Assembly (NCBI GenBank): GCA_042564455.1
Contig: JBHPLC010000005.1
Span: 481-64,480 of the forward strand
Source: Candidatus Zhuqueibacterota bacterium
GTDB taxonomy: Bacteria; SM23-31
Direction: 5' to 3'
DNA: 64,000 nucleotides
In this document: positions 42,701 to 64,000 of the stretch, piece by piece
How positions within the stretch are numbered: position 1 is the stretch's first letter
Layout of the letters: each line of letters begins with the position of its first letter
The notes under the pieces: model-generated
Told to the model about the DNA's origin: nothing
Database searches by the model: none
Seen by the model: the letters and a program-made list of their open reading frames with translations, nothing else
Translations under genes and position numbers: made by a program

Positions 42701-44935
42701 TCAAACCTCAAAGTTCTCCCACTCATACTTGACTCTCACCATAAGCTTCTTAAACCGCTCCTCGCCGCGGATGTTTTCGAGGAAGGGATCGTAGTCATTG
42801 AGGTGCGGGTAGTTTATCCAGCCCTTTCCAACTGCGTTTTCAAGCCAATCCAAAGCCTCCTCTTTTTTGTCTATCAATGAATAACGTTCTGCCATCCACC
42901 ACGAATACCATGTATCTCGCCTTGCCCATATTTCAAGTTCCCTGCTAATAGAATTCAGCATCCCTGATTTTTCTCCCTGCAAAGCATACTTCAGCAGAAC
43001 ATTCATTTGGGTAATAAAGTTGTCAGGCGAAGTTTGGGCACATTTATCTATAAGAGAATACGCCTCTTCGTATCGTTTGAGCCATGAAAGGCAAATTACT
43101 CGCCAATATTCAATCATAGGATTCTCAGGTGAAAGTTGACCTGCTTTTTCGTATAATTTAAGTGCTTGATCATATTGCCCTTTAAACAAATATGGACCTC
43201 CTAACATCAAAGGACCAAGATAATTGAGCGGATCGACTCGTGCAATTTTCTCAGCGAGCTGAAGAACCGTAGACATTTTCCCAACCGCTGCATATGCAGC
43301 CGCAAGCCAGAACATTGTATCAGGATCGTTTGGATCCACGTCAAGAGCGCGACTCAGGTGTTGAATACTCTGTTTTTGATCTCCACGAAACGCTAAATAT
43401 ATGATTCCAAGAACGAGGTGTCCTTGAGGTGACTCCGGATCCAGTACAAACGCTTTCTGTACATATTCCTCTGCTTTATCGATGTGATCCTCACCCCCTA
43501 ATCCAATATTGGTATATTGAAAATACGCGTACCCTATACCAGCATACAACACTGGATTATCCCCTATTATGTTTAGGGCATTCTGTAAACCATGTAACGC
43601 GCGATCAAGCCCCTCTTTTGACCACTGGTTGATGTCATACTTTGCTCTAAGATAACACTCATAAGCCTGTACATTGTCGATAGGCCGCTCGGCGATTTGT
43701 TTATTCTCTTTTTGTGTCAATTTCACTTTGAGAGCATCAACAATCGACCTTGATACTTTCTCCTGAATGTCAAATATATCGTCCAGAGTCCCATCGTATT
43801 TCTCCGCCCACACATGATCGTCTATCGGTGCATTGATAAGCTGTGCCATTATTCGGAGGTTGTTTCCGGCCTTGCGGACTGAGCCTTCAAGGACGTACTG
43901 TACATTCAGTTCTTTAGCGATTATCCTTATTTCTTTCTTAGTATCTTTAAGCATCATAGCTGACGTACGCGATATCACCCTGAGGTCATGTATATGCGAC
44001 AGGTCAGTGATTATCTCTTCCGTAAGTCCGTCACTGAAGTATTCCTGTTCAGGATCGGAACTCATATTCTCGAATGGCAGGACAACGATCGATCTTTCAG
44101 TTTCTATTACTGTAACTGGAGAAGGGAGTTTTATCTCCCCTGATAATTCCTGCATACTCTGGTATCTGACTGCGGGATCTTTTTTAAGGCATTTATTAAT
44201 GATCGCGTCAAAGTAATTCGGTATATTTTTGCGCAGAGCAGTTGTACTCTCCGGATCGGTATTTACCACCGAGTACATCACAGCCGCTTCATATTCGCCT
44301 TTGAAAGGGATTTTTCTAGTCAGCATTTCGAATAACACTACACCGAAAGACCAAATGTCCGTACGATGGTCTATATCTTCAGCTTTATACTGCTCCGGAG
44401 ACATATATTTGGCAGTACCGACAGTAGAAGATTCCATTGTAAGTTTAGTGACACCTTTCATCTGCGCCAGGCCAAAGTCGAGGAGTTTTACTCTACCAGA
44501 GTTATCAATAAGGATATTCTCGGGCTTTATGTCGCGGTGGGTGATACCCGCCTTGTGTGCTTCCTGCAATCCTTCACACATCTGTGTGGCAATGTCTATT
44601 ACGCGGTCGAGTGGTATTTCGCCTTCCTGTATCACATCCCGGAGAGACTTCCCGTCAACATACTCCATGGCTATGTAGGTATCACCATCATGCTCACCTA
44701 TCTCAAAAATCGTCACTATATTAGGATGGTTCAATTTCGCCGCAGACTTTGCTTCACGCTTGAACCGTTCGACTGCCTTTTCGTCGGAAGTAAAATGTGC
44801 CGGCAGGAACTTCAACGCTACTTTCCGTTCCAGCTTGGTATCCTCCGCAAGATATACCTCTCCCATGCCGCCTTCACCGAGTTTTTCGAGGATCTTATAG
44901 TGTGCTATTGTTTCACCGATCATATTTATATCCAC
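42701..44935 (-). CDS. Ser/Thr protein kinase with C-terminal TPR region
   Basis: GEGGMGEVYLA, VALK, HRDIKPENILI, DFGLA, SPEQ, then TPR-like repeats. The tail is RFKKLMVRVKYEWENFEV. The likely true start is MIGETIAHY at 44923. Confidence 0.9.
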   Translation of the reverse strand: MDINMIGETIAHYKILEKLGEGGMGEVYLAEDTKLERKVALKFLPAHFTSDEKAVERFKREAKSAAKLNHPNIVTIFEIGEHDGDTYIAMEYVDGKSLRDVIQEGEIPLDRVIDIATQMCEGLQEAHKAGITHRDIKPENILIDNSGRVKLLDFGLAQMKGVTKLTMESSTVGTAKYMSPEQYKAEDIDHRTDIWSFGVVLFEMLTRKIPFKGEYEAAVMYSVVNTDPESTTALRKNIPNYFDAIINKCLKKDPAVRYQSMQELSGEIKLPSPVTVIETERSIVVLPFENMSSDPEQEYFSDGLTEEIITDLSHIHDLRVISRTSAMMLKDTKKEIRIIAKELNVQYVLEGSVRKAGNNLRIMAQLINAPIDDHVWAEKYDGTLDDIFDIQEKVSRSIVDALKVKLTQKENKQIAERPIDNVQAYECYLRAKYDINQWSKEGLDRALHGLQNALNIIGDNPVLYAGIGYAYFQYTNIGLGGEDHIDKAEEYVQKAFVLDPESPQGHLVLGIIYLAFRGDQKQSIQHLSRALDVDPNDPDTMFWLAAAYAAVGKMSTVLQLAEKIARVDPLNYLGPLMLGGPYLFKGQYDQALKLYEKAGQLSPENPMIEYWRVICLSWLKRYEEAYSLIDKCAQTSPDNFITQMNVLLKYALQGEKSGMLNSISRELEIWARRDTWYSWWMAERYSLIDKKEEALDWLENAVGKGWINYPHLNDYDPFLENIRGEERFKKLMVRVKYEWENFEV

Positions 44936-49365: not shown

Positions 49366-50232
49366 TCAATCATACTCTCGAAAAAACTCATAATCGATTT
49401 CATATGCTTTTTTAGGTTTTAAACCTAGTTCGAGGCGCTCGAACATTTCAACCAACTTTTCTCCATCGACTAATTCAATTGGCTCTACACCATCTCTTCT
49501 CGCTTCCTTCTTTGCTTCCAAAGTAAAAGATCCTGTTGTTATTATAATTCCTTTATCAGCTCTCCCCTGAATTGCACCTCGAAAATCTCTTAGTTGGGAA
49601 GAAGAAACTGAACCTCTATATCGTTTGCTTTGAAACAGGACTCGAAAACTCACCAATGGATTTATTTTTAGAATTCCAATTCCGTCTATACCTCCATCAC
49701 CAGATTTACCCGTAACGGAGACTTGTTCAAAACCGGATTCGCGTAAAAGTCTTTGACAAATTTTTTCAAAACTATTTGGAGACATATTCTGAAGGATATT
49801 TAGCAATTTGCCCTTGGTGTCAATATATTCAGGAACAATATGGCTATCTATGTCTTCAGGTTTTTTATCTTTACTTTCCAAATCGCTTTTGTCACTTTTT
49901 ACATAACTATCCTGGATTATCTTGAAATGTTTTTTTACATCATTATCCGATAATTTTACTTTCCAACCCATATCAGTAAGATTCCATACTCCTCTTTGAG
50001 ATGAATCTAAAAAACCAGATTTCACACAGTATGACCTTGCCCAAGCAATTTGGTTTCTTACTCGTGACACTCCACTTTTTAAAGTCTCTTCTTGCTCAAT
50101 TTCCGTTATTTTGAGTTTGTCAATAACAAAATCAGAAACCTCAGATGGTGTACCTGATCCACCAAGTTCCTTTAAAGCATCTATAACAGGAATAAAATAT
50201 TTCAGAAATTGCGGTCCTTGAACATTAGCCAT
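49366..50232 (-). CDS. mrr: Mrr-family restriction endonuclease (Mrr_N winged helix plus Mrr_cat)
   Basis: The N-terminus is FLKYFIPVIDALKELGGSGTPSEV...RNQIAWARSY. The C-terminus is FEKICQRLLRESGFEQVSVTGKSGDGGIDGIG...FQSKRY...GIIITTGSFT. Confidence 0.85.
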   Translation of the reverse strand: MANVQGPQFLKYFIPVIDALKELGGSGTPSEVSDFVIDKLKITEIEQEETLKSGVSRVRNQIAWARSYCVKSGFLDSSQRGVWNLTDMGWKVKLSDNDVKKHFKIIQDSYVKSDKSDLESKDKKPEDIDSHIVPEYIDTKGKLLNILQNMSPNSFEKICQRLLRESGFEQVSVTGKSGDGGIDGIGILKINPLVSFRVLFQSKRYRGSVSSSQLRDFRGAIQGRADKGIIITTGSFTLEAKKEARRDGVEPIELVDGEKLVEMFERLELGLKPKKAYEIDYEFFREYD

Positions 50233-51781: not shown

Positions 51782-52996
51782 TTATAGCTTTGACAAGCGT
51801 CTTAACGTTTTACGGTATAGTGTTATGAAGTGATCTGGTGTATGCGCCTGAGGCCCATAGAAAGCACGGGCATCTATACCATTTAAGTTATCTAGATGTA
51901 AATCATGCCTTATCTTTCCTAAGGTGTTTTTGTCTGCCTCTCTGCCATTGGTCGAATAAAAAACTTGAGTACGTAATGTACGTGTTTTTTTACGACCAAA
52001 TAATCCTTTCTCAGGTACATTTCGCGATATATTTATCCTGTTGCCCACTCCCGTTGCGATACTAAAATAACAATTATAGTCTATCAGTATTTTTTTAAGT
52101 TTCCGCCATTGAACTCTACGGTCTCCGCGCTCGACAAGACGTGAGTTACTATTTATCCATCTCGCAATTTCTAAGGCCTCTCTATCAGCTAAATCTGAAA
52201 CATTTGTTTCACCAACTAACCTATGTTGTGCTACTTTGATAACCAATCTAAATAAATCATTTTCTTTACATGTTAGAAGGAGCCCGTTTTCATCTAAAAA
52301 CACTAGTAATGAGACCAAAGCCGTACGCTTATTACCGTTATGAAAAGGATGGTTTAGAACGATTGAATGCATAAGGGCCGCACCCGCCATCTCAGTTGTA
52401 GGGTATTTAATCTCATTTTCTAATGAAGTACTAGGTCTGTATAGCGCAGATGCTAAAAGATCTTCACTCTTAATACCGGCAGGACTAATCGGATCATCTG
52501 CTTCTTGAAAATCCACGACAAGAGCATTATGTATAGCTGAGACTTCCTCTAACTTAAGCATACGGAGCTCCCGTTGATGCCCTATTATTTCCCATTTTAG
52601 AGGTTTAGGTATTTGTACTGCATCAGGGGTAACTTCTTTTTCGCTAACATCAGCAATGTTTCCACGACGCCGTGACTCTGCTTTCAGCTTAGCAATTGAA
52701 CCCTTCGGCATTCGTCTCACACTTGGTCGCATCACTATATTAAGTGAAGTCAGAATCTCTCGCAGACCATTTGTATCTGTTTGAAATATTTTCTGCCAGT
52801 ATTCTGGAGAAGTAAAATCTTTCTTTGTTGCGATTCCAAGTGCACGACGAGCCAGATTGACTTTTTTTTTGGGGATTGTATCAGTAGGTGATTCAACTTG
52901 ATCTATGCCCTCGTCCCAAAGTAATACTAATGCCTCATCAAGGTCAAGTTTTGCCTCTAAAGCGAGATTCGATACAGTGTGTTTTACCCTAGCCAC
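51782..52996 (-). CDS. Doc-type Fic domain protein with N- and C-terminal extensions (GTG start)
   Basis: The central region is SAIHNALV...LLASALYRP...YPTTEMAGAALMHSIVLNHPFHNGNKRTALVSLLVFLDENG, with the Doc-like HxFxxGNKR motif. About 150 aa lie upstream and about 130 aa downstream of it. Confidence 0.75.
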   Translation of the reverse strand: MARVKHTVSNLALEAKLDLDEALVLLWDEGIDQVESPTDTIPKKKVNLARRALGIATKKDFTSPEYWQKIFQTDTNGLREILTSLNIVMRPSVRRMPKGSIAKLKAESRRRGNIADVSEKEVTPDAVQIPKPLKWEIIGHQRELRMLKLEEVSAIHNALVVDFQEADDPISPAGIKSEDLLASALYRPSTSLENEIKYPTTEMAGAALMHSIVLNHPFHNGNKRTALVSLLVFLDENGLLLTCKENDLFRLVIKVAQHRLVGETNVSDLADREALEIARWINSNSRLVERGDRRVQWRKLKKILIDYNCYFSIATGVGNRINISRNVPEKGLFGRKKTRTLRTQVFYSTNGREADKNTLGKIRHDLHLDNLNGIDARAFYGPQAHTPDHFITLYRKTLRRLSKL

Positions 52997-53393: not shown

Positions 53394-55163
53394 TTAAAGA
53401 ATTCCGATCCCATCGTTCCCTAAAAATCTACTTGGTTTATTGCGATAATCTTCCAGATCTGTAGCGTAAAGGAGATACTTTTTTGCCCTTGTAATTCCAA
53501 CGTAAAGGAGACGACGTCCCTCCTCAATTCTATCAATGTCATTATCACGTAATGCTCTAAAATCAGGTACTTTTCCGTCATGGAGATCAATTATTGCTAC
53601 GGCTTCAAACTCGCGACCTTTTGCTTTATGCATTGTAAGAAGTTTTATACTATTTGCAGTATCAGCAAATAATCCTAGGTCCTCTATTGTAAGGTTTGCA
53701 ATATCTACATTATTGCGCTTCATATCACCAATCATGTCATCAACTGACTGTCTGAGTATAGTAGCAGATTCAACAGAAATGAGATGACTTTGAGACAACT
53801 CCTGTCCCATTGCAGTTGCCGCCTCTGTTAACCACGCAACACCACTTTGTTGATCATCCATAATTTGTCTACCAATCCGTAGAATTTTTAGTGCTAATAG
53901 CCGACCTTCAAAAGAATACAGAGTAAATGGGCGCTGGCCAGAAAGGGTGTTTAATGTTAAATAGAGTTCTTTTTCCAGTTGATGAAAAATTTTAGGACTA
54001 TTCATGACTAAGCAGGCACAAATCTGCTCTGCTATTGATGCGAATAGGTGAGTTCTTTTATATGGGCGAGCCCCAGGTCCAACCACTGGAATTCCATATT
54101 CTCTTAAAAATTTAGCAAGAGGAAATAGTTTAAACCACCAAGGCGATAGTATTGCGGCCTCACCGTATGGTATCTTCTGTTCTTCTAATGCTGGAAGAAA
54201 ATAATCTGTAATTGCATCAAAAGAATTATCCGTGTTCACATATTCAGGTTTCACTCCATAGTCTGCATTTACACCAACAGCTTCCATTGTAGGACTTCTT
54301 GGACAAAGTCGTTCCGCGTGTTCAACAATATAAGTGCTACATCTAAAATTACCTACTAATGAAAAATTGTCTCTTGCATTTATCTCTTCGGCAAACTCAT
54401 TAAGTAAAGCTGGAAAAGCCCCAGCAAATCCAAAAATTGACTGGTAAAGATCTCCAACAAGAAAGAATTTTGTTTTCTCATATTGTGCAATTATCCTAAA
54501 TATTTCTACCTGTAGTGCGCTTGTATCTTGAAACTCATCAACAAGTAACCATTTGTATTTGGATGCCAATGAATGCGCCACACTCGGATAATCGGTTAAT
54601 ATTTGGTAAGTGTAATAAACTATACTCGGAAAATCCATAAGTCCTTTTGATAGCAAAGTATCCCAAAAATGTATCACAACTTTATCGGCAACATCAGGAA
54701 TCTGACAAGGACTACCGTCAGGCTGTCGATTCAAATTTAATAATGAATCATATGTATTAGATCCAAGCTTAAAGTGATCAAGTGTTTGCATAACATTATC
54801 TTTATAGATTTCACAATCGGTAGGTATCACAGTAAAACCACTTTTATATTCTGGAATGAGTTCATAAAAGAAATTGAGTATATTTATTAGACAAAATGAA
54901 TGAATAGTTGAAATATCACAATAATCTTCATCACCAGATCGCCCATAACATCTTAATCGGTACTCAATTTCATGTACAGCTGCATTAGTATAAGTAAGGC
55001 AAGCAATCTTGTGTGGAGAGTTTCTTACATCTTGAATACAATTGAGCATTTTTGCAACAAGAGTTCGAGTTTTTCCGCTTCCAGGACATGCCACTATCAG
55101 ATTATTATCGGTGCATTTTATTGCATCTTGTTGTGTCGAAGTGAGAATCATAATTCCAACCAT
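53394..55163 (-). CDS. gajB: Gabija GajB (UvrD-like SF1 helicase)
   Basis: LTSTQQDAIK...VACPGSGKTRTL, LLVDEFQDTS, ...MHKAKGREFEAV, LLYVGITRAKK. The likely start is ATG at 55151, which overlaps the gajA stop as ATGA. Confidence 0.8.
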   Translation of the reverse strand: MVGIMILTSTQQDAIKCTDNNLIVACPGSGKTRTLVAKMLNCIQDVRNSPHKIACLTYTNAAVHEIEYRLRCYGRSGDEDYCDISTIHSFCLINILNFFYELIPEYKSGFTVIPTDCEIYKDNVMQTLDHFKLGSNTYDSLLNLNRQPDGSPCQIPDVADKVVIHFWDTLLSKGLMDFPSIVYYTYQILTDYPSVAHSLASKYKWLLVDEFQDTSALQVEIFRIIAQYEKTKFFLVGDLYQSIFGFAGAFPALLNEFAEEINARDNFSLVGNFRCSTYIVEHAERLCPRSPTMEAVGVNADYGVKPEYVNTDNSFDAITDYFLPALEEQKIPYGEAAILSPWWFKLFPLAKFLREYGIPVVGPGARPYKRTHLFASIAEQICACLVMNSPKIFHQLEKELYLTLNTLSGQRPFTLYSFEGRLLALKILRIGRQIMDDQQSGVAWLTEAATAMGQELSQSHLISVESATILRQSVDDMIGDMKRNNVDIANLTIEDLGLFADTANSIKLLTMHKAKGREFEAVAIIDLHDGKVPDFRALRDNDIDRIEEGRRLLYVGITRAKKYLLYATDLEDYRNKPSRFLGNDGIGIL

Positions 55164-56971
55164 TCAATTGCATCACGAATATATTTTGGTACAATTTCAG
55201 CCTTATTAACGTATTTAGATGTTACTTGAGCAAATCTTGCTTTACCAAATCTCTTTGCAGTATTGAGTACACTGTCTCTAAGAGGTTTCAAAATCTTTTT
55301 TTTCTGTATAGACTTAATACCTTTACTAGATAATTCAGTAAAACCGTCTTTGAGTTTTTTAGTAACACGAGTTGCACCAAGTTCCTCAGTTGCGCTTGCC
55401 AACATTTTTAGGGTACCTTTTAGAGTGACTGCTCGTTCGAAAGTTGTACTACAACGAAAAACTTCAACGAATTCACTACAAAGTGGTTCCAATTCTGGTG
55501 GTTGCAAAGATTCTTCTTCATTTAATATGTTTGAATCGCTTGGTATAAGGTCACCATCTGCAACGATTGCACATTTTTTTGGCATTCCCATATTATTAAA
55601 AAGTTTTGCATAAACATCAAAATGGATGCCGTAAATGGGTACAACTGATACTCCATGTCTTTCTAAGTCAATATTAAGAACATGTTTTACCAGTGGTGGT
55701 ATTAGAAATAACTCTGCAGGACCTTCAACAAGAATGACTTTTCGAGTGTAAAGTATTGTTGAGCGTGTTGCATCAAGATATCTTTCTAAATCTGCAACTT
55801 CCGGGTCTTCGAGAATTCCGTTTCTATATGGAGTAGTTCCAATAGTAGCCGGATTACCTTGATTTGTAAGTACTACAACAGAGTCGAGGTTTGCCGCTGA
55901 GGTAATGTGTGTGCTGTGTGAAGAAAGGATTGTCTGAAATGGTTTGGATTTGAGACTCGAAAATAGCACTCTTTGAAGTTGTGGGTGAAGGTGTGCTTCT
56001 GGCTCTTCAACAAAAAGCAACTGTCCTGCACATTTTTTACTTCTAACGCGACGTTCGAAAGTTTCCATCAACATACTCACGTAAAGGATGTTATTTAAGC
56101 CAAGCCCATTTCTATAAGGTTCAAAATCTCGCAAAGCGTCATTACTAAGTAATATTGTAAGTGAGCGTGCAATTGAAGAAAAAGAAGGATCAGCCATACC
56201 TAGTCTTACATTCATTTGAAATGCTTCACCAGCAGTCTTTCTGAATTCACCGTCAATTGCATTACCAGCATCTGCGATTGTCGGTCTTTCAGATATAGCC
56301 TCGTTTGCTTCGCGTAGAATGTTTACTAAACTATCTTTCTCATCTTCTGGAATTGCGCTTGAATCCAATAAACGTCCTAATGGTGATGTACGACTTTGTC
56401 TAAGATCATGGCGAACATCTCTAAGCGCAGGTAGAAAAACTACTTGAAATTGTTGAAGGTCAGAAAAGCGTACTGAATGCCCTAAATGCTCATACCATTG
56501 AACTTCTGATGGATCGTTTTGACCACCACCAGTGAGTTCCCAATGATAGTCATCAAGGGTAAGGTTTGTTGGTATTGGTTCCTCTCTTTCTTTCAACTCT
56601 ATAAATTCTCGTTTGGGCCTGAACCGGTATGTCAATCTTGCTTTTCTATTTTCTTGATCGAACTCCCAACTACCAACTAAAGCCGTTGCAGGGTCACTAT
56701 CATAATAATCCGAGAACTCAATCGAAACAATGGCCTGGTTTGGATCAGTAATATCGGCTCCACAGTGGAAATCTTGTTCATCTAAAGATCGGTAATTTGA
56801 CGATAAACCGGCATCCAAAGCTAGCCTTATACCAAAAATGAGATTAGATTTTCCAGTGTTATTTTCTCCAACTAAACATGTGACTCCTGAGCTAATTGAA
56901 ACATCCAAGTGTTCGAAATTTCTAAAATTCCGAATTATTATTCTGGAAATATACATTAGAAATCCTCTCAA
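55148..56971 (-). CDS. gajA: Gabija GajA (OLD-family ABC-ATPase plus TOPRIM endonuclease)
   Basis: MYISRIIIRNFRNFEHLDV...LVGENNTGKSNL, LLFVEEPEAHLHPQLQ, SSHSTHI, TOPRIM KVILVEGPAELFLIP. The likely start is MYISR at 56956. Confidence 0.8.
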   Translation of the reverse strand: MRGFLMYISRIIIRNFRNFEHLDVSISSGVTCLVGENNTGKSNLIFGIRLALDAGLSSNYRSLDEQDFHCGADITDPNQAIVSIEFSDYYDSDPATALVGSWEFDQENRKARLTYRFRPKREFIELKEREEPIPTNLTLDDYHWELTGGGQNDPSEVQWYEHLGHSVRFSDLQQFQVVFLPALRDVRHDLRQSRTSPLGRLLDSSAIPEDEKDSLVNILREANEAISERPTIADAGNAIDGEFRKTAGEAFQMNVRLGMADPSFSSIARSLTILLSNDALRDFEPYRNGLGLNNILYVSMLMETFERRVRSKKCAGQLLFVEEPEAHLHPQLQRVLFSSLKSKPFQTILSSHSTHITSAANLDSVVVLTNQGNPATIGTTPYRNGILEDPEVADLERYLDATRSTILYTRKVILVEGPAELFLIPPLVKHVLNIDLERHGVSVVPIYGIHFDVYAKLFNNMGMPKKCAIVADGDLIPSDSNILNEEESLQPPELEPLCSEFVEVFRCSTTFERAVTLKGTLKMLASATEELGATRVTKKLKDGFTELSSKGIKSIQKKKILKPLRDSVLNTAKRFGKARFAQVTSKYVNKAEIVPKYIRDAIEWLEL

Positions 56972-57142: not shown

Positions 57143-57598
57143 TTATTCGACCTGTATTAAATTAATTAAACGAGGTATTTCATTTACTTTGCTTCGTTTG
57201 AAATATCTTTCTATTGCTCTACGAATACCTGTTTTTTTCATTGCGAATTTTATATCATATTTTAATATATCATAGCATACATGTACCCACATATTATAAA
57301 GGTTGGGACATTTATCTTTCTTGATAGATCTTAATTGCATTAGTAAATCAGGGATAGCCTTTAATTTAAATTCTAAATTATGATGTTCTTTACGAAAAGC
57401 TTGCATTTCATTGAGAATATTTTCTTCTCTTATGATAGACTTTGGTATTGGATTCTGAATAAGATCCTCACCTATTAGAAAATATTTGTAATAAATATTA
57501 GCAATCGTATTTGCTAAATCATAAGGAATATCATCTAATTGACCTAATTGGCTGTTTATTGCTTCTCGGCAGTCTTTGATAATTTCTTCATTAACCAT
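57143..57598 (-). CDS. hypothetical protein upstream of gajA
   Basis: 151-aa ORF with no recognisable motif. Confidence 0.4.
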   Translation of the reverse strand: MVNEEIIKDCREAINSQLGQLDDIPYDLANTIANIYYKYFLIGEDLIQNPIPKSIIREENILNEMQAFRKEHHNLEFKLKAIPDLLMQLRSIKKDKCPNLYNMWVHVCYDILKYDIKFAMKKTGIRRAIERYFKRSKVNEIPRLINLIQVE

Positions 57599-57895: not shown

Positions 57896-59005
57896 TTACT
57901 TAATAAATATCATCCGTTTTATATCACTAAAACTTCCAGCCTTTAATTGATATAAGTAAATCCCTGAGCTAACCTGCATGCCAATCTCATTTTTACCATT
58001 CCAAATATATTTATAATTTCCAGAAGACAAGTTATCAGATATTAATGATTTTACTAATGATCCGGCAGAATTGTATATTCTTAAAGTCACATAAGAACTT
58101 ATTGGTATTTGGATTTGAATAGTTGTTGTTGGATTAAAAGGATTAGGAAAATTCTGTTTGAGTGAAAACTGTTTTGGAATCATATTCTCAGAAAAATCAT
58201 CAATAATATTTGTTGTCAGATTAGTAAACGTAAAGCTATATTCGGTACCGTAATAATTGTCTGTAAAATAAAGTGTCGTAGCATCTATAGATACATTTCC
58301 AGAATATATATCATAGCGATTATAAAATTCTATCTGCAAAGTCGGTCCAGTAGGATTGTACGTTATGGAACCGTTAAATATCCCTGTTCCCACCGCAAAC
58401 CAAGTAACATCAGCTACAACAACAGTATCATTATATGAAGCATTTGAAATTGTATAAGTATCGTTCAAACGAGGAATTGCATTCTGATCTGTGTTGTCAG
58501 TCGATGTAACTTTCCAAGTACCATTCCATAAGGCAGGATCTGCTTCGGTCACTACTGGTATTTCAGTAAACGTAAAGCTATATTCGGTACCGTAATAATT
58601 GTCTGTAAAATAAAGTGTCGTAGCATCTATAGATACATTTCCAGAATATATATCATAGCGATTATAAAATTCTATCTGCAAAGTCGGTCCAGTAGGATTG
58701 TACGTTATGGAACCGTTAAATATCCCTGTTCCCACCGCAAACCAAGTAACATCAGCTACAACAACAGTATCATTATATGAAGCATTTGAAATTGTATAAG
58801 TATCGTTCAAACGAGGAATTGCATTCTGATCTGTGTTGTCAGTCGATGTAACTTTCCAAGTACCATTCCATAAGGCAGGATCAGTGCTCTGAGATAATAC
58901 AGATGAAGAAATAGAAAGTATGAGAAATATTATAACATATCTAATACTTTTCATGATCAAGACCTCTTTTAGTATTATCAAGAATACATCAACATAAATA
59001 AACAA
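57896..59005 (-). CDS. T9SS-sorted secreted protein with an internally duplicated 114-aa module
   Basis: The C-terminus is QNFPNPFNPTTTIQ...SGIYLYQLKAGSFSDIKRMIFIK (Por/T9SS CTD). The likely start is MKSIRY at 58954. Confidence 0.8.
   Translation of the reverse strand: MFIYVDVFLIILKEVLIMKSIRYVIIFLILSISSSVLSQSTDPALWNGTWKVTSTDNTDQNAIPRLNDTYTISNASYNDTVVVADVTWFAVGTGIFNGSITYNPTGPTLQIEFYNRYDIYSGNVSIDATTLYFTDNYYGTEYSFTFTEIPVVTEADPALWNGTWKVTSTDNTDQNAIPRLNDTYTISNASYNDTVVVADVTWFAVGTGIFNGSITYNPTGPTLQIEFYNRYDIYSGNVSIDATTLYFTDNYYGTEYSFTFTNLTTNIIDDFSENMIPKQFSLKQNFPNPFNPTTTIQIQIPISSYVTLRIYNSAGSLVKSLISDNLSSGNYKYIWNGKNEIGMQVSSGIYLYQLKAGSFSDIKRMIFIK
58224..58882. repeat. perfect in-frame tandem duplication (two 317-nt identical copies, 342-nt period)
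   Basis: 58224-58540 and 58566-58882 are identical base for base by eye. They encode DPALWNGTWKVTSTDN...GTEYSFTFT twice. Confidence 0.9.
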
Positions 59006-59037
59006 GATTTACATATCAAAACATGAACTAATCCTTA

Positions 59038-59643
59038 CTAAAAATAATCGAAGGGTTTTATACCAAAGCCTAAAAGAAAGGAGTTTCCTTGATAATCTTG
59101 TTTAAAATTGTCAAAATAATTGTAATTGTTTTTGTATTCTAGGAAAAATCCAAATTTATAAATATCAAAATATACTCCGAAATTTAGTGATAATTCTAAG
59201 ATATCTAATTCCTTTTGTTTACTATCGCTCCAAAGCTGATCATAACCAACACCCAAAGTTATAAAAGGAAATGCTCTATAGCTATTATCACTATAATTAT
59301 AAAGACAGCTTCCAAATTCTAATGCCACAGTTCCTGAATTATCAACCTTATATGGTTTTCTATCAACATTAGAAGATGAGGCCGTAAATGATAGAATAGA
59401 TCTTCCATCTTCATTCAAATAAATACCCTTTAGGAAAATACCATAGCTTGCAGGTGATAGACCGGTGTTAAAATCTATTTGATGTTTTTTAATGTTAAGA
59501 CCATGAACAATAAACAATGATTTCTGCTTTTTCCCAATACCTATATCAATATCATCTTGTATACTAATATTGACCTGATTTTGAGCAATTGAAATTGAGC
59601 AAAAAAATATTATAAGAATACATGCCAAGATAGTAGTTTTCAT
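59038..59643 (-). CDS. small outer-membrane beta-barrel-like protein
   Basis: 201 aa with a signal peptide, alternating pattern and a C-terminal ..GFGIKPFDYF. Confidence 0.5.
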   Translation of the reverse strand: MKTTILACILIIFFCSISIAQNQVNISIQDDIDIGIGKKQKSLFIVHGLNIKKHQIDFNTGLSPASYGIFLKGIYLNEDGRSILSFTASSSNVDRKPYKVDNSGTVALEFGSCLYNYSDNSYRAFPFITLGVGYDQLWSDSKQKELDILELSLNFGVYFDIYKFGFFLEYKNNYNYFDNFKQDYQGNSFLLGFGIKPFDYF

Positions 59644-59684
59644 TGCTTTTCCCTCAATTATTAATGTTCATTTATGACCAATAT

Positions 59685-60788
59685 CTACTTTACAAACATC
59701 ATTCTCTTTACCTCTTGGAAATCACTAGCTTTTAATTGATATAAGTATATCCCGGAACTAACCTGCATACCGGATTCATTAGTTCCATCCCATTTATAAT
59801 GGTGATCACCTTGACCTACATACCCACTGAATATCGTTTTAACCTTTACACCATTTGAATTATAAATTGTCAATTCCACATTCTCAGTTTTTGAAGCGTA
59901 AAACTTTAAAGTTGTTTCCGGATTAAATGGATTGGGATAATTCTGGTTTAAATAAAATTGTTCAGGAATAATTCCTTTCTCTTCTTCATCTCCAATAGCT
60001 GATGTTGGTCTTTGAGTAATAACATTTGGTTCATAACTTAATAAACTTGGAATTCCATTTTCAATTTTGAATTTTATGAATCTTTCAGAGACATAAGTGT
60101 AATTCCATATTTCATTAACTTTTTCTATCCATACTTCACTATTTAATTCTAAATTCCATGCTCCAATTTTTACTTCTTTGTCATTCTGAGGCTCTATAAA
60201 ATACCAATCATTCCAATTTAATGCATTATCTCCCATCAAAATTGCACTAGCAGCATGTCCTGGATGACGAATTCCAATAACATAAAAAGGAAGATTAAAT
60301 CTTGCATTATTTGTTGTGTCATATTTAGATGGAATTGTCCCATTAAAACCATTAATATTAATATATGTTTGAACAGAATATTCATTGCATGTCCAACTAT
60401 CTGTAGCAGTACTTGTATCTGTTTTATCAATTGCATACATTTTATCTACCCATGATTCTCGTTCTTGTCTTGTTGTTAATTTATTCCAGTCACTTGGAAG
60501 ATAAAGAGTTTGTCCTGATAAATAATTTTCTAAAACATCTAAGTCAGCTTGAGTTGAAGGTGTTCCGTCTCCGTCAATGTCAGACAAATCATTTGATACT
60601 CCTGATTGAATTAAATTATAATCTGTTTGGTCAACAGCTCCACTTGAGTCAACATCCCCACTTCCATAATAAATTGTTGTTTGTATTGGTTGGATAAAAG
60701 GATTTATTTCTTGGGCTTTTGAAAATTTTGGAAATAACAAAAGTAGGGCTGCCCCTGCAAAAACCAAACTATTTTTTAATTTGTTCAT
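59685..60788 (-). CDS. T9SS-sorted secreted protein with dockerin/EF-hand-like repeats
   Basis: GDVDSSGAVDQTDYNLI...SDIDGDGTPSTQADLDVLENYL. The C-terminus is QNYPNPFNPETTLKF...SGIYLYQLKASDFQEVKRMMFVK. Confidence 0.8.
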   Translation of the reverse strand: MNKLKNSLVFAGAALLLLFPKFSKAQEINPFIQPIQTTIYYGSGDVDSSGAVDQTDYNLIQSGVSNDLSDIDGDGTPSTQADLDVLENYLSGQTLYLPSDWNKLTTRQERESWVDKMYAIDKTDTSTATDSWTCNEYSVQTYININGFNGTIPSKYDTTNNARFNLPFYVIGIRHPGHAASAILMGDNALNWNDWYFIEPQNDKEVKIGAWNLELNSEVWIEKVNEIWNYTYVSERFIKFKIENGIPSLLSYEPNVITQRPTSAIGDEEEKGIIPEQFYLNQNYPNPFNPETTLKFYASKTENVELTIYNSNGVKVKTIFSGYVGQGDHHYKWDGTNESGMQVSSGIYLYQLKASDFQEVKRMMFVK

Positions 60789-61172: not shown

Positions 61173-62300
61173 TCATTTAGTCCAACCTAGTGCTTTGTGA
61201 ACATCCTTAAAATCTGTAAAAAGATGTTTGAAAATACTTTTTGCAAGGTTATTTATTCTTTTAGGCTTCGAAACAGTGTAATTAGTTTCATATATGAGTT
61301 TATTGAAATATCCTCTTCTAAATAGTTCTTTTACAATACATTCAATTAAGATTAAATCTGCCACTTCAAGATGTGAAATGTTATTCTTATATTTTAGTGA
61401 ATCTGGGATTAATTTATCTCCATGGACAATTTTATTACGTAACCTATTAAATCTTAAAGTCCATCTCCCTGCAGTGGTAATTTCAGACTTATTTGGTTTT
61501 ATACCGGGAACTTTTCTAAAGCTTTTTGATGCAATATTATTTTCAATATATTTAATAAAGTAAGCCTCTTTTGTAACTCTCTTTTTGGTTTTCTTCCCTT
61601 TTTTTTTGTGTTGTAAACCTGGAAATTTCAGAAAAACTTCAAAAGCTGAATGCATCATTACAAGTTTTGCATATGGGGAGAAACCGAAATCTTCTAAATG
61701 TGCAATTCTAAACCATTCCAGGCTTTGAAATAACCTATCTGTAAATCGATTCTTTTGAACTAAACACTGGCCAAATCCTTCAGTTAGAGTGGGAAAATAA
61801 CTTCGAATACCTAAACGAACTGTTGATGGTTTATAACACCTAAATTCACCCTTACTTAGAGATGAAAAAGTACTGCTTGTTTCAAAGTCAAGTACGTGGA
61901 CTATTCTATCTTTTCCGGAATTATGAATGTTTATCATCTCAAACAAATTTGTGTTAGGAAAATTATCATATGTTCCTGTATAGCAGACTTTACTTCTAAT
62001 ATTGAAACAAATATAATTGAGAATGAGTATGTCAACAGCTCTACGGATATCCAACACTTCTAAACTTGTTAATTTTCTAAAATTCAATTCCCCATGTGTG
62101 CAAATCGTAATATTGTTTAGAAGAAACATTCTATCTGAACGAGCTGAAAGGAAGCTTTGAGACAGAAGACTCATAATATCTTCAGAAGATTTTAAGTCAT
62201 CTTGAACATTGGAGAATGGAGAGAAATGTATTGAACCAATCACAATGGATTCTTCTAGCTCGAGCCATGGGAGTATAAATATTTCTCTCCAGTTATTCAT
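61173..62300 (-). CDS. uncharacterised protein with a C-terminal HEPN-like domain (Rx4H)
   Basis: 375 aa. The C-terminal part is LFQSLEWFRIAH...AKLVMMHSAFEVFL...WTLRFNRLRNKIVHGD...HLEVADLILIECIVKELF. RNKIVH fits the HEPN Rx4-6H motif between predicted helices. Confidence 0.55.
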   Translation of the reverse strand: MNNWREIFILPWLELEESIVIGSIHFSPFSNVQDDLKSSEDIMSLLSQSFLSARSDRMFLLNNITICTHGELNFRKLTSLEVLDIRRAVDILILNYICFNIRSKVCYTGTYDNFPNTNLFEMINIHNSGKDRIVHVLDFETSSTFSSLSKGEFRCYKPSTVRLGIRSYFPTLTEGFGQCLVQKNRFTDRLFQSLEWFRIAHLEDFGFSPYAKLVMMHSAFEVFLKFPGLQHKKKGKKTKKRVTKEAYFIKYIENNIASKSFRKVPGIKPNKSEITTAGRWTLRFNRLRNKIVHGDKLIPDSLKYKNNISHLEVADLILIECIVKELFRRGYFNKLIYETNYTVSKPKRINNLAKSIFKHLFTDFKDVHKALGWTK

Positions 62301-62304
62301 TATA

Positions 62305-63192
62305 CTACCTAATACGTCCGGTGCATTTCAACAGCATTGCAATTAAAGAAAATAAGCGATGGAACAAATAATCTATGTACTCAGAGCGTTCTAATGGGAT
62401 TGTATCAGTTTCTGTGTGCCTGATTTGGAATTTATTACCATATTCGGTCAATATAATAGCTTCAGCATCAATGAATTCTCTAATATTTTCTTCTGGGATA
62501 GCATTTTTGAGTAAAGTTTCAATTTTTTCACGCTTATTTTTACCCTTTTCAAGAGTTTTTAGCCTCTCAAAAGCATCCCATAACTTATCAACTGCTTCTT
62601 TTCGAACAGCCACTTCAGGTTTCCTGATCTTTTCTTTCGCATTTTCTAATAATTTGTTAAGTTCTTCATCTTCTGTATTTGCATATGTCGACTCGACTAT
62701 TCTTTGAAGAGGTTCTGATAAAAGTCTTCTAATCTTTCCAATGTCATCAAATTCAAATGCAAGATTATTTCTGCTAAAAAGCGTATTGACTATATCGCGA
62801 TATTCTCTTCTACCTTGATCAGTATTAAAAGTAATATAGTGGTTATGCTTAAAGAAATCATGATATTCTGTTCTTCTAGGTTTTGAAATCTTATCATGAA
62901 AAAATTCAATTAGATCAAAGCAATAGTAGTTAGGTGGGATCTCATTGGATCTTAGGGGCCAGGTAATAGTTGGATTACTGCCACCTACCGCTAATCCTAA
63001 GTTTTGAGAATTGCATCCAATGATTACCGGACTGTCCTCACATCTTTCTGGATACATTTCTGCTAAATAACCGTTATTCTTATAACTTTCTACGAGACTG
63101 ACAATTCCACCCCAGAAAGATTCTGTTATTTCTTCACTGGTTCTGGGTGTCTCTCCAGATTCTCTTTCAGTAAAATATCTGTGTTCGTTCAT
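62305..63192 (-). CDS. uncharacterised protein (AbiJ N-terminal-domain-like signature, from memory)
   Basis: 295 aa with FTERESGETPRTSEEITESFWGGIV..., DLIEFFHD..., KLWDAFERLKTLEKGKNKREK..., NKFQIRHTETD..., IDYLFHRLFSLIAMLL. Its stop lies 4 nt before the start of the HEPN gene. Confidence 0.4.
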   Translation of the reverse strand: MNEHRYFTERESGETPRTSEEITESFWGGIVSLVESYKNNGYLAEMYPERCEDSPVIIGCNSQNLGLAVGGSNPTITWPLRSNEIPPNYYCFDLIEFFHDKISKPRRTEYHDFFKHNHYITFNTDQGRREYRDIVNTLFSRNNLAFEFDDIGKIRRLLSEPLQRIVESTYANTEDEELNKLLENAKEKIRKPEVAVRKEAVDKLWDAFERLKTLEKGKNKREKIETLLKNAIPEENIREFIDAEAIILTEYGNKFQIRHTETDTIPLERSEYIDYLFHRLFSLIAMLLKCTGRIR

Positions 63193-63236
63193 ATGATGAG
63201 CCTAATTGTATTTTATAGAAAATAGATTGGATAAAA

Positions 63237-63824
63237 TTATATGTTTTCTATATATGGTGAAACTACATTTGGAAATTTTTCACGATCCCAACCCACAGGA
63301 AATGGAAGTGGAACTTTATTTAAGACTCTATCTTCCAAACCAGAACACTTTACATTGGAATAGATATGGTTAAAGATACCTTTCTTAATGATGATGATAT
63401 TCTCTGGATCTAATTGTTCTATTTCCATTTGCAGAATATCTATGCAGTTATTAAGAATCTGAGGTTTAAACTCTTTATTTGGGCCGTTTACAGGGCATTT
63501 GGCAGCATCAATTAAGAAATGTCCAAGTTCTTGAAATTTTTTTAGACTTTCAACTTTAGTACCTGAAATGGAAATTTTAAGGACTCCCATAATTTGTTTT
63601 ATTAGTATATCACGATACTCTATCAAACCAGGTCTGTAAAAATACCGAGGAGTTTTCCCTGGTTTTACATATGGAGGAGATTCGATAATCCAGAGCAATT
63701 TTATAAGATCTGGTTTGTATTTATTATAGGCATTGTCAAAGTTCTGCTCTTTTGCAGTATTATAATTCAATCCAAATTCTTTACATTTATTGCAGTTTAA
63801 AATTTTCTCACGTATTTTATCCAA
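63237..63824 (-). CDS. uracil-DNA-glycosylase-superfamily-like protein (TTG start)
   Basis: 195 aa with CNKC..., LLWIIESPP (position of UDG motif A), FLIDAAKCP, then NCIDILQMEIEQLDPENIIII and VPLPFPVGW (position of motif B). The motif order matches family 4/5 UDGs, but the motif residues are atypical. Confidence 0.45.
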   Translation of the reverse strand: MDKIREKILNCNKCKEFGLNYNTAKEQNFDNAYNKYKPDLIKLLWIIESPPYVKPGKTPRYFYRPGLIEYRDILIKQIMGVLKISISGTKVESLKKFQELGHFLIDAAKCPVNGPNKEFKPQILNNCIDILQMEIEQLDPENIIIIKKGIFNHIYSNVKCSGLEDRVLNKVPLPFPVGWDREKFPNVVSPYIENI

Positions 63825-63843
63825 ATTTATTTCTCACAAAGTA

Positions 63844-64000
63844 GATTAGATTTTTACATCATATTATATTTTTTGAAGTTCTCTGCCTGTTCAAAAATCT
63901 CTTTGTAAACTTCATCTCTGTCCACAGGCGGATAATCGTTTTCGGCCAAAAGGACGATCAAATCTGCTTTAAGTTCAGCCTTAATATCTTCACGATGGCT
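63844..64000 (-). CDS. hsdR: type I restriction enzyme R subunit, C-terminal end (5' part outside the window)
   Basis: My translation of the minus strand is SHREDIKAELKADLIVLLAENDYPPVDRDEVYKEIFEQAENFKKYNMM-stop. The ..YPP....V...I.EQAE.. tail is typical of HsdR C-termini. Confidence 0.55.

Follow-up and report, generated by a model that had tools for sequence, protein, structure and literature searches.

Do three genes packed behind a restriction-modification operon form one immune system, or do they share no more than an address? This question is raised by a 64,000-nucleotide (nt) stretch of Candidatus Zhuqueibacterota bacterium DNA (assembly GCA_042564455.1, contig JBHPLC010000005.1, forward-strand positions 481 to 64,480; hereafter the window, to which all gene coordinates refer unless a homologous locus is named), in which three open reading frames (ORFs), here called genes 1, 2, and 3, follow a type I hsdR gene of which the 3′ end is included. 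A first-pass annotation, made from the letters alone, had proposed that their products—a protein with a uracil-DNA glycosylase (UDG) fold, an AbiJ-N-terminal-like protein, and a HEPN protein—could constitute a single module linked to restriction-modification (R-M), the trio not being recognized as any named defense system. We instead favor, with moderate confidence, three independent single-protein defense modules, or candidates for such modules, stacked behind the type I R-M genes.

All features of the cluster lie on the minus strand. Gene 1 (63237..63824; 195 amino acids (aa), TTG start) represents a rare UDG-fold family and is a candidate defense DNA glycosylase; gene 2 (62305..63192; 295 aa) matches the PADLOC single-gene candidate PDC-S32 from end to end; and gene 3 (61173..62300; 375 aa) encodes a two-domain protein of an unnamed family. 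The ORFs are where the first-pass annotation had placed them, and each has homologues (E-values of 1e-35 to 1e-47 for gene 1, down to 1e-88 for gene 2, and 1e-40 for gene 3). The N-termini of these homologues align with the called starts, and all three genes are real. The sequence motifs quoted in that annotation could likewise be found in all three genes without exception, most of them being invariant within their families.

The gene preceding gene 1 is represented by its last 48 codons and a TAA stop (63854..64000; translation, Pfam, and PADLOC), with the remainder—helicase and nuclease domains, as well as hsdM and hsdS—lying outside the window. This tail matches Pfam T1RH-like_C (PF11867; E=3.2e-12, 46.9 bits against a cut-off of 26.8, profile positions 286-328 of 329) and PADLOC REase_I (E=1e-7), and by its sequence is the C-terminus of a type I HsdR, as had been annotated. 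Its stop codon, however, had been placed ten bases off, at 63844-63846: it occupies 63854-63856, which leaves 29 nt rather than 19 nt before gene 1. The two further spacings, 44 nt between genes 1 and 2 and 4 nt between the stop of gene 2 and the start of gene 3, were measured as previously given. As for the suggested co-transcription with the R-M operon, the cluster holds no minus-strand hairpin resembling a terminator, in keeping with the suggestion, but sigma-70-like promoter sites occur there at the frequency of shuffled sequence and are hence uninformative. Co-transcription of hsdR with genes 1–3 is plausible.

To what extent do the three families travel together? We collected 113 loci, namely eight with gene 1 homologues, 80 metagenomic loci with gene 2 homologues (five more gene 2 loci were collected besides), and 25 with gene 3 homologues. 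The latter, collected in part with a 14-sequence alignment, stem from Acidobacteriota, Atribacterota, Planctomycetota, Nitrospinota, CPR, and an archaeon. A six-frame hidden Markov model (HMM) search with all three family profiles returned no locus, out of 113, in which any two of the families co-occur. Flanks were adequate at 45 gene 2 loci on the downstream side (at least 1100 nt) and at 56 on the upstream side (at least 600 nt), at 17 gene 3 loci upstream (at least 900 nt), and at seven gene 1 loci downstream (at least 2 kb). The company kept by the homologues was diverse: gene 2 relatives neighbor AbiEii, SMODS/SLATT, GmrSD, TIR, or nSTAND3 genes, with others standing alone among housekeeping genes, and gene 3 relatives neighbor HEPN_Swt1 plus DUF499, SNF2 plus NOV_C helicases, a reverse transcriptase, or DUF4917. 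Among 88 neighbors scanned beside gene 2 homologues, no R-M family, type I included, was seen in at least two.

These data bear directly on the integrated, R-M-coupled trio proposed at the outset, in which the UDG-fold protein would sense or excise a phage base and the AbiJ_NTD4 protein would relay the signal to the HEPN protein. In its favor, the genes share one strand with short gaps and no internal terminator-like site, and each of the proteins is of a type known from defense. Moreover, small products of DNA breakdown activate the HEPN protein ApeA, and the glycosylase Brig3 has an accessory enzyme in its operon, so that a glycosylase product serving as a signal is conceivable. Yet no two of the three families met at any of the 113 loci, type I R-M is not enriched among the 88 neighbors of gene 2 homologues, gene 2 is already a stand-alone candidate, and gene 1 homologues pair with a different ORF or carry a fused extension, neither of which exists in the window (see below). 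We therefore regard the integrated trio as very unlikely. The claim of a three-gene system fails because the genes show no synteny at other loci and because one of them is an already named candidate, PDC-S32. Judged by these sequence comparisons, the locus holds no new three-gene system. Conversely, the lack of co-occurrence, the varied defense contexts of each family, and the identity of gene 2 as PDC-S32 are what lead us to stacked modules.

Known UDG profiles hardly register gene 1. Its match to Pfam UDG (PF03167; E=0.05, 14.1 bits) is far under the gathering cut-off of 24.3, with the family consensus faring similarly (E=0.034), and that to the NCBIfam type-4 UDG model (E=0.077) is far under its cut-off; a PADLOC scan gave no match, and a gene 1-family profile run against all PDB sequences retrieved nothing at E<=10. 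An AlphaFold (AF2) model built on an 11-sequence alignment (pLDDT 81.7, pTM 0.85) was more informative: each of the top 50 of 50 Foldseek matches in the PDB belongs to the UDG superfamily (TM ~0.6, probability up to 1.00, best E=2e-3), including SMUG1, the family 4 UDGs of Thermus and Sulfolobus, MUG/TDG, and UNG, which have in common an alpha/beta fold built around a parallel sheet of four strands. The predicted structure thus confirms a UDG fold for gene 1 and bears out the UDG-fold call of the first pass.

The closest enzymatic parallels are the iron-sulfur UDGs of families 4 and 5 (T. thermophilus 1ui1 and S. tokodaii 4zbx; TM ~0.58-0.60 to the gene 1 model), in which four cysteines hold a [4Fe-4S] cluster (PMC5295032). 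We judged invariance on alignment A2, comprising gene 1 and its ten homologues (11 sequences). Invariant in this alignment are C11-x-x-C14 (63783..63794), C110 (63495-63497), and C127 (63444-63446)—a CxxC pair and two later cysteines in the same order as in families 4/5—which are putative ligands and probably form a [4Fe-4S] cluster. Likewise invariant is E48-S49-P50-P51 (63672..63683), immediately after strand beta-1 (residues 43-47 in the model) and hence at the position of motif A, the water-activating loop that reads GEAPG in family 4 (PMC5295032) and GQDPY in family 1. Gene 1 keeps the E and P of GEAPG, that is, the E-x-P core, whereas both glycines are replaced (I-E-S-P-P). At the position of motif B, which reads HPS... 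in families 1 and 4 and is given in full as HPS(S/A)(L/V)(L/V)R for family 4 (PMC10359453), lies P174-F175-P176 (63297..63305; both prolines invariant, F175 conserved in at least 90% of sequences) within a stretch of the form (I/L)-P-F-P-G, which lacks the catalytic His. The residues at catalytic positions are thus as atypical as had been remarked, with ESPP for GEAPG and PFP for HPS.

A further signature, D106-A-A-K109-C110-P111 (63492..63509; D106, K109, C110, and P111 invariant), follows strand beta-2. Additional invariant stretches embed these residues: W-I-x-E48-S-P-P, P-R-Y-F-Y-R, and F-L-I-D106-x-x-K-C-P. Going by motif order rather than superposition, D106 would stand where uracil-specific UDGs, including those of families 4/5, have their base-reading Asn. 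Together with the lost motif-B His, this Asp argues against plain uracil repair and hints that the target base may carry an exocyclic amine, as would, for example, a modified cytosine.

The gene 1 family is also set apart from family 4/5 enzymes by its extreme rarity and its confinement to defense islands. A search of 5.8 billion proteins returned ten homologues at 41-46% identity, so that the family counts about 11 members, and all homologues with usable context (eight loci) reside in defense islands. At three of these loci (L004-L006), SIR2 and Dsr1-like genes precede the homologue; at another (L007), it lies within a BREX-type locus (PglX/PglZ), after SLFN_AlbA_2; at three more (L009-L011), it follows a DEAD/MZB (DISARM-like) helicase, UvrD, AIPR, and SLFN_AlbA_2; and in a KSB1 genome (L008), it sits between an Eco57I-type methylase/SNF2-PLD pair and McrBC.

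This distribution speaks to the alternative that the cluster, or some of it, is not immune at all, with gene 1 being a divergent family-4-type housekeeping repair glycosylase or an inactive DNA-binder of UDG fold and genes 2 and 3 being toxin-like or selfish cargo. The four-cysteine pattern and the E-x-P motif A are indeed those of family 4 repair UDGs, and non-catalytic UDG-fold proteins exist, as reported for binding proteins of the UdgX type (PMC10359453, PMC5295032). In addition, the roles of all three genes are read from sequences and models, and only four of eight PDC/HEC candidates protected when tested (PMC12881386). Against this, a family with about ten homologues among 5.8 billion proteins is far too rare to be a housekeeping one, all homologues whose context is available fall in defense islands, motif B is devoid of its His and the Pfam UDG match stays under the cut-off, and the 20 kb surrounding the cluster are dense in recognized defense genes. 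We consider a non-immune cluster unlikely.

In three of the four gene 1 contexts, an upstream ORF of 185-190 aa overlaps the homologue by 17 nt (L004 9460-10017; L007 9460-10017; L009 9445-10017; L011 448-1005). This ORF has no Pfam or PADLOC match and may be a dedicated partner of the glycosylase family. Four homologues (P0002, P0003, P0006, and P0008; e.g., L008 10001-10966) instead bear a C-terminal extension of ~125 aa with the motif SKDGKSRSG(I/V)LK and of unknown fold, which is unrelated to the 185-aa partner by BLAST. We searched the window for both and found neither.

A defensive role for a UDG-fold enzyme has precedent in Brig1, Brig2, and Brig3, proven single-enzyme defenses that excise modified phage bases. 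Brig1 acts on alpha-glucosyl-hmC (PMC11078745), Brig2 on modified thymidines, and Brig3—whose helper BapA is encoded in the same operon—on 5hmC. Gene 1 resembles all three in its UDG fold, its small single-domain build, and a defense-island setting that extends to its homologues; its D106 is an acidic residue at the presumed place of the Asn in uracil-specific enzymes, much as Brig1 functionally requires a Glu where S. tokodaii UDG has Asn82 (PMC11078745); and the neighbor gene that seems dedicated to some of its relatives recalls BapA. The differences are the four invariant cysteines of gene 1, given that searching the Brig1 and Brig3 papers for iron or iron-sulfur turned up neither term, and its length of 195 aa against the 261 aa of Brig1. 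All of these likenesses and differences compare published descriptions rather than sequence with sequence. On balance, the best reading of gene 1 is that of a candidate Brig-like defense glycosylase that would stand for a new branch, of Fe-S type.

Gene 2 is more readily placed. Its residues 5-289 align with positions 2-298 of 301 of PADLOC model PDC-S32 (PDLC04995; E=9.9e-58), and on this sequence match it is a member of that family. Nothing separates the two, the gene matching the model end to end and adjoining a known system, type I R-M; the family itself, however, is a candidate. PDCs were predicted from their recurrent embedding in known systems such as R-M, BREX, or DISARM, and one study that tested eight PDC/HEC candidates found four to be protective (PMC12881386). 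Around 130 gene 2 homologues occur in many phyla. The N-terminal domain (residues 5-169; 62686..63180, minus strand) scores above the Pfam cut-off for AbiJ_NTD4 (PF18863; E=1.1e-9, 39.4 bits, cut-off 34), with the family consensus giving E=1.8e-17, in agreement with the AbiJ-N-terminal-like label of the first-pass annotation. Domains of this kind have been proposed to sense phage components (Anantharaman 2013).

The remaining ~125 aa (62308..62685, minus strand) form a C-terminal domain of unassigned family that reads as helical in its sequence. In alignment A3, the domain displays invariant W205-D206..E209-R210.K212-T213, G252-N253...I257-R258-H259, and D274..F277.R279, with the R258-H259 dyad encoded at 62416-62421, and the family has no canonical Rx4-6H motif. 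Pfam gave no match to this domain, even for the family consensus at E<=10. Abi_C or HEPN was matched neither by gene 2 nor by its consensus at E<=10, nor did Abi_C appear in the precomputed Pfam annotation of the listed homologues. Profile-profile comparisons gave no support for a HEPN identity either, hhalign probabilities ranging from 0.15 to 3.9% over the gene 3 HEPN region (3.9%), an Abi_C protein (0.6%), and Swt1-HEPN. In its two-domain layout and its above-threshold AbiJ_NTD4, gene 2 thus resembles Lactococcus AbiJ (AbiJ-NTD plus Abi_C HEPN) and other AbiJ-type proteins (PMC3710099), but differs from AbiJ by having the R258-H259 dyad in place of an Abi_C/HEPN domain with Rx4-6H. AbiJ-NTD4 is also known in fusions with HEAT repeats (PMC3710099), to which the start of the gene 2 C-terminal domain bears a weak HEAT/TOG-like resemblance; the sole PDB sequence match of a gene 2 profile, a HEAT-like stretch of STU2, is at chance level (E=0.56).

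With merely 4 nt between the stop of gene 2 and the start of gene 3, these two might form a sensor-effector module of their own, in which the PDC-S32 protein signals to, or neutralizes, the HEPN RNase, and gene 1 is separate. Several gene 2 subclades do have a same-strand downstream gene that they overlap by 4-11 nt. Its product may be a 440-aa AbiJ_NTD3 protein (L082, L086, L097, and L099), an nSTAND3+HEAT NTPase (L065, L077, and L108), a 210-aa unknown protein (L096, L100, L104, L109, and L110), or, once, an Abi_C HEPN protein (L071). Partners drawn from such unrelated conflict families are what one would see for a conserved component with exchangeable effectors, and could be just that for PDC-S32, or could reflect mere packing of defense genes. 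Set against the pair are the 17 gene 3 loci with enough upstream sequence, none of which has a gene 2-like gene nearby, and the 45 gene 2 loci with enough downstream sequence, none of which has a gene 3-like gene. Furthermore, most gene 2 homologues are without a tightly coupled same-strand partner and some are alone among housekeeping genes, the closest homologues (48-50% identity) have no coupled downstream partner, and PADLOC handles PDC-S32 as a single gene. We rate a two-gene module as rather unlikely, though as the most credible of the alternatives. At one gene 2 locus (L116), a CAP12-PCTIR TIR gene lies just upstream of the homologue.

Gene 3 belongs to a sizeable family, for which an exhaustive profile search yielded 649 cluster representatives at E<=1e-3, 403 of them at E<=1e-10; a word-index search had found two homologues. 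Its AF2 model (pLDDT 86.9, pTM 0.89) shows, with confidence, an N-terminal alpha/beta domain (~residues 1-165; 61806-62300) and an all-helical C-terminal half with a HEPN-like domain (~residues 170-340; 61281-61793), both on the minus strand. The latter contains R288-N-K-I-V-H293 (61422..61439, minus strand), an Rx4H motif and putative HEPN RNase site. Across 51 diverse members, P11, W12, E221, W280, R288, H293, and W373 are invariant, and the consensus around the motif is LRNxIVHGD. Profile matches to HEPN families are below their cut-offs: RiboL-PSP-HEPN at E=0.14 for gene 3, spanning the Rx4H stretch, and HEPN_Apea (E=0.0054) and RiboL-PSP (E=0.018) for the consensus C-terminal domain. HEPN_Apea is matched by four of the 51 relatives (best 3.2e-5). 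PDB sequence searches with a gene 3 profile were empty, and a Foldseek search of the model against PDB and BFVD gave no significant match, IRE1 KEN and Csm6 appearing only at E ~1-4. Of the HEPN assignment made in the first pass, the invariant Rx4H motif stands; the profile matches agree with it, though below threshold, and the fold searches do not confirm it. Two fusions were seen in the family: a 671-aa protein with ~296 extra N-terminal residues that lack a Pfam match (P0153; L022 2880-4895) and a 511-aa protein with a C-terminal DUF3795 (P0201).

PrrC and RloC, HEPN anticodon nucleases of type I R-M loci, were considered as relatives, PrrC having been invoked as a precedent for an effector embedded in a type I R-M locus; both carry an N-terminal ABC-ATPase (PMC3710099). 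HEPN genes beside R-M operons are a described theme of multi-pronged defense (PMC3710099), and gene 3, as a putative HEPN RNase close to type I hsd genes, fits the precedent loosely. It does not extend further: Pfam, NCBIfam, and PADLOC scans detected no ATPase domain in gene 3, which excludes a PrrC-like protein, the gene lies two genes past hsdR, and its relatives are not beside type I R-M among annotated neighbors. The R-M complex, for its part, is what keeps PrrC and RloC silent.

A nearer analog is ApeA, a proven single-protein HEPN defense and tRNA anticodon nuclease activated by deoxydinucleotides, members of whose family also occur in R-M operons (PMC3710099). Like ApeA, gene 3 encodes a single polypeptide, here with an N-terminal region that resembles nothing known and a C-terminal HEPN-like domain, and HEPN_Apea is the Pfam family nearest to gene 3 and its relatives. 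ApeA, however, is far larger, with N-terminal, Mid, and HEPN domains and catalytic R502, whereas gene 3 has 375 aa in two domains, a sub-threshold HEPN_Apea score, no fold match, and no PADLOC match at E<=1. We thus rejected gene 3 as an ApeA.

The activation of ApeA by DNA-breakdown dinucleotides offers a model for how the three genes might be wired into one circuit in this particular lineage: gene 1 would excise a modified phage base, and the freed base or the damaged DNA would be read by gene 2 and/or the N-terminal domain of gene 3, switching the HEPN RNase on. We rate such a circuit as improbable, slightly below even the integrated trio. If true, an abortive-infection system that a glycosylase triggers would here have become attached to type I R-M.

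The wider setting is in line with an accretion of modules. Pfam and PADLOC scans identified the right-hand 20 kb of the window as a defense island, all genes mentioned here being on the minus strand. It contains Gabija (53394-56971), by its sequence a complete system, with GajA (55148..56971; PADLOC 1.5e-245; AAA_15 plus an OLD-like TOPRIM) overlapping GajB (53394..55163; PADLOC 1.2e-220; UvrD helicase). Further members are a PD-T4-6-like Ser/Thr kinase (42701..44935; 1.5e-97), a gene resembling PDC-S02/type IV methyl-directed restriction endonucleases (49366..50232; 4e-30), and a Fic/Doc protein (51782..52996; Pfam Fic 5.6e-12; weak PDC-S23). Past Gabija, the order is secreted-protein genes, then gene 3, gene 2, gene 1, and hsdR. 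An ORF at 57143..57598 was considered as a second gene 2-like gene and dismissed (weak Pfam AbiJ_NTD4 at E=0.069; hhalign probability 0.2%).

The two or three secreted-protein genes (57896-60788, minus strand) split the island between Gabija and gene 3. Two of their products end in a C-terminal tail of the NYPNPFNP type, which we take to resemble a type IX secretion sorting domain and which presumably hints at a host of the FCB group or a related one. Within one of these ORFs (57896..59005, minus strand), at 58223-58882, a 342-bp unit recurs in 1.9 copies of 100% identity, which encode two ~114-aa protein repeats without any difference; the repeat stems from a tandem duplication of very recent date or else from an artefact of assembly.

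Together with Gabija in the same island, the single-protein precedents Brig1-3 and ApeA complete the case for independent modules stacked behind the R-M genes. The genes, their folds and motifs, the distribution of each family, and their failure to co-occur are direct observations. Several points weigh on the other side. We infer every biochemical activity and every defense phenotype of genes 1–3. The relatives sampled are distant (25-50% identity) and include no close relatives of this organism; the tight same-strand spacing (29/44/4 nt) and the lack of a predicted terminator are as an operon would have them; and a minority of gene 2 homologues show translational coupling to a downstream conflict gene that varies and in one case encodes an Abi_C HEPN protein, so that the junction between genes 2 and 3 might be functional. 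In addition, structure searches of PDB and BFVD do not confirm the HEPN fold of gene 3, and we found no mention of PDC-S32 in the literature searched.

If genes 1–3 are indeed independent, they would be horizontally shuffled modules that have built up at the 3′ end of the type I R-M operon within a defense island and that are possibly carried on the hsdR transcript without forming one obligate system. The gene 1 protein may flip out and excise a non-canonical, phage-modified base, and the abasic sites left behind may block phage replication. In gene 2, AbiJ_NTD4 would serve as the sensor and the C-terminal domain with its invariant R-H dyad as the effector. In gene 3, the novel N-terminal alpha/beta domain would restrain the C-terminal HEPN (Rx4H) domain until infection, whereupon the activated protein, presumably as a HEPN dimer, would cut host or phage RNA as an abortive-infection-type RNase—a logic similar to that of ApeA in a different family. 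Immunity would thereby be layered, with R-M directed against unmodified DNA, the glycosylase against modified DNA, and the RNases as back-ups.

The locus should hence not be catalogued as a new three-gene system; its value lies in the rare family of gene 1 and the unnamed family of gene 3. For PDC-S32, the analysis provides a first description, namely AbiJ_NTD4 followed by a conserved R-H domain, with what may be exchangeable coupled partners in some clades. The gene 3 family, with its ~650 representatives and an N-terminal domain that has no structural match and is thus a candidate new sensor domain, merits testing as a single-gene defense. The same applies to the uncharacterized and very rare gene 1 family, which, if it proves to be a modified-base glycosylase, would bring Fe-S enzymes, and perhaps a new substrate, into the Brig class.

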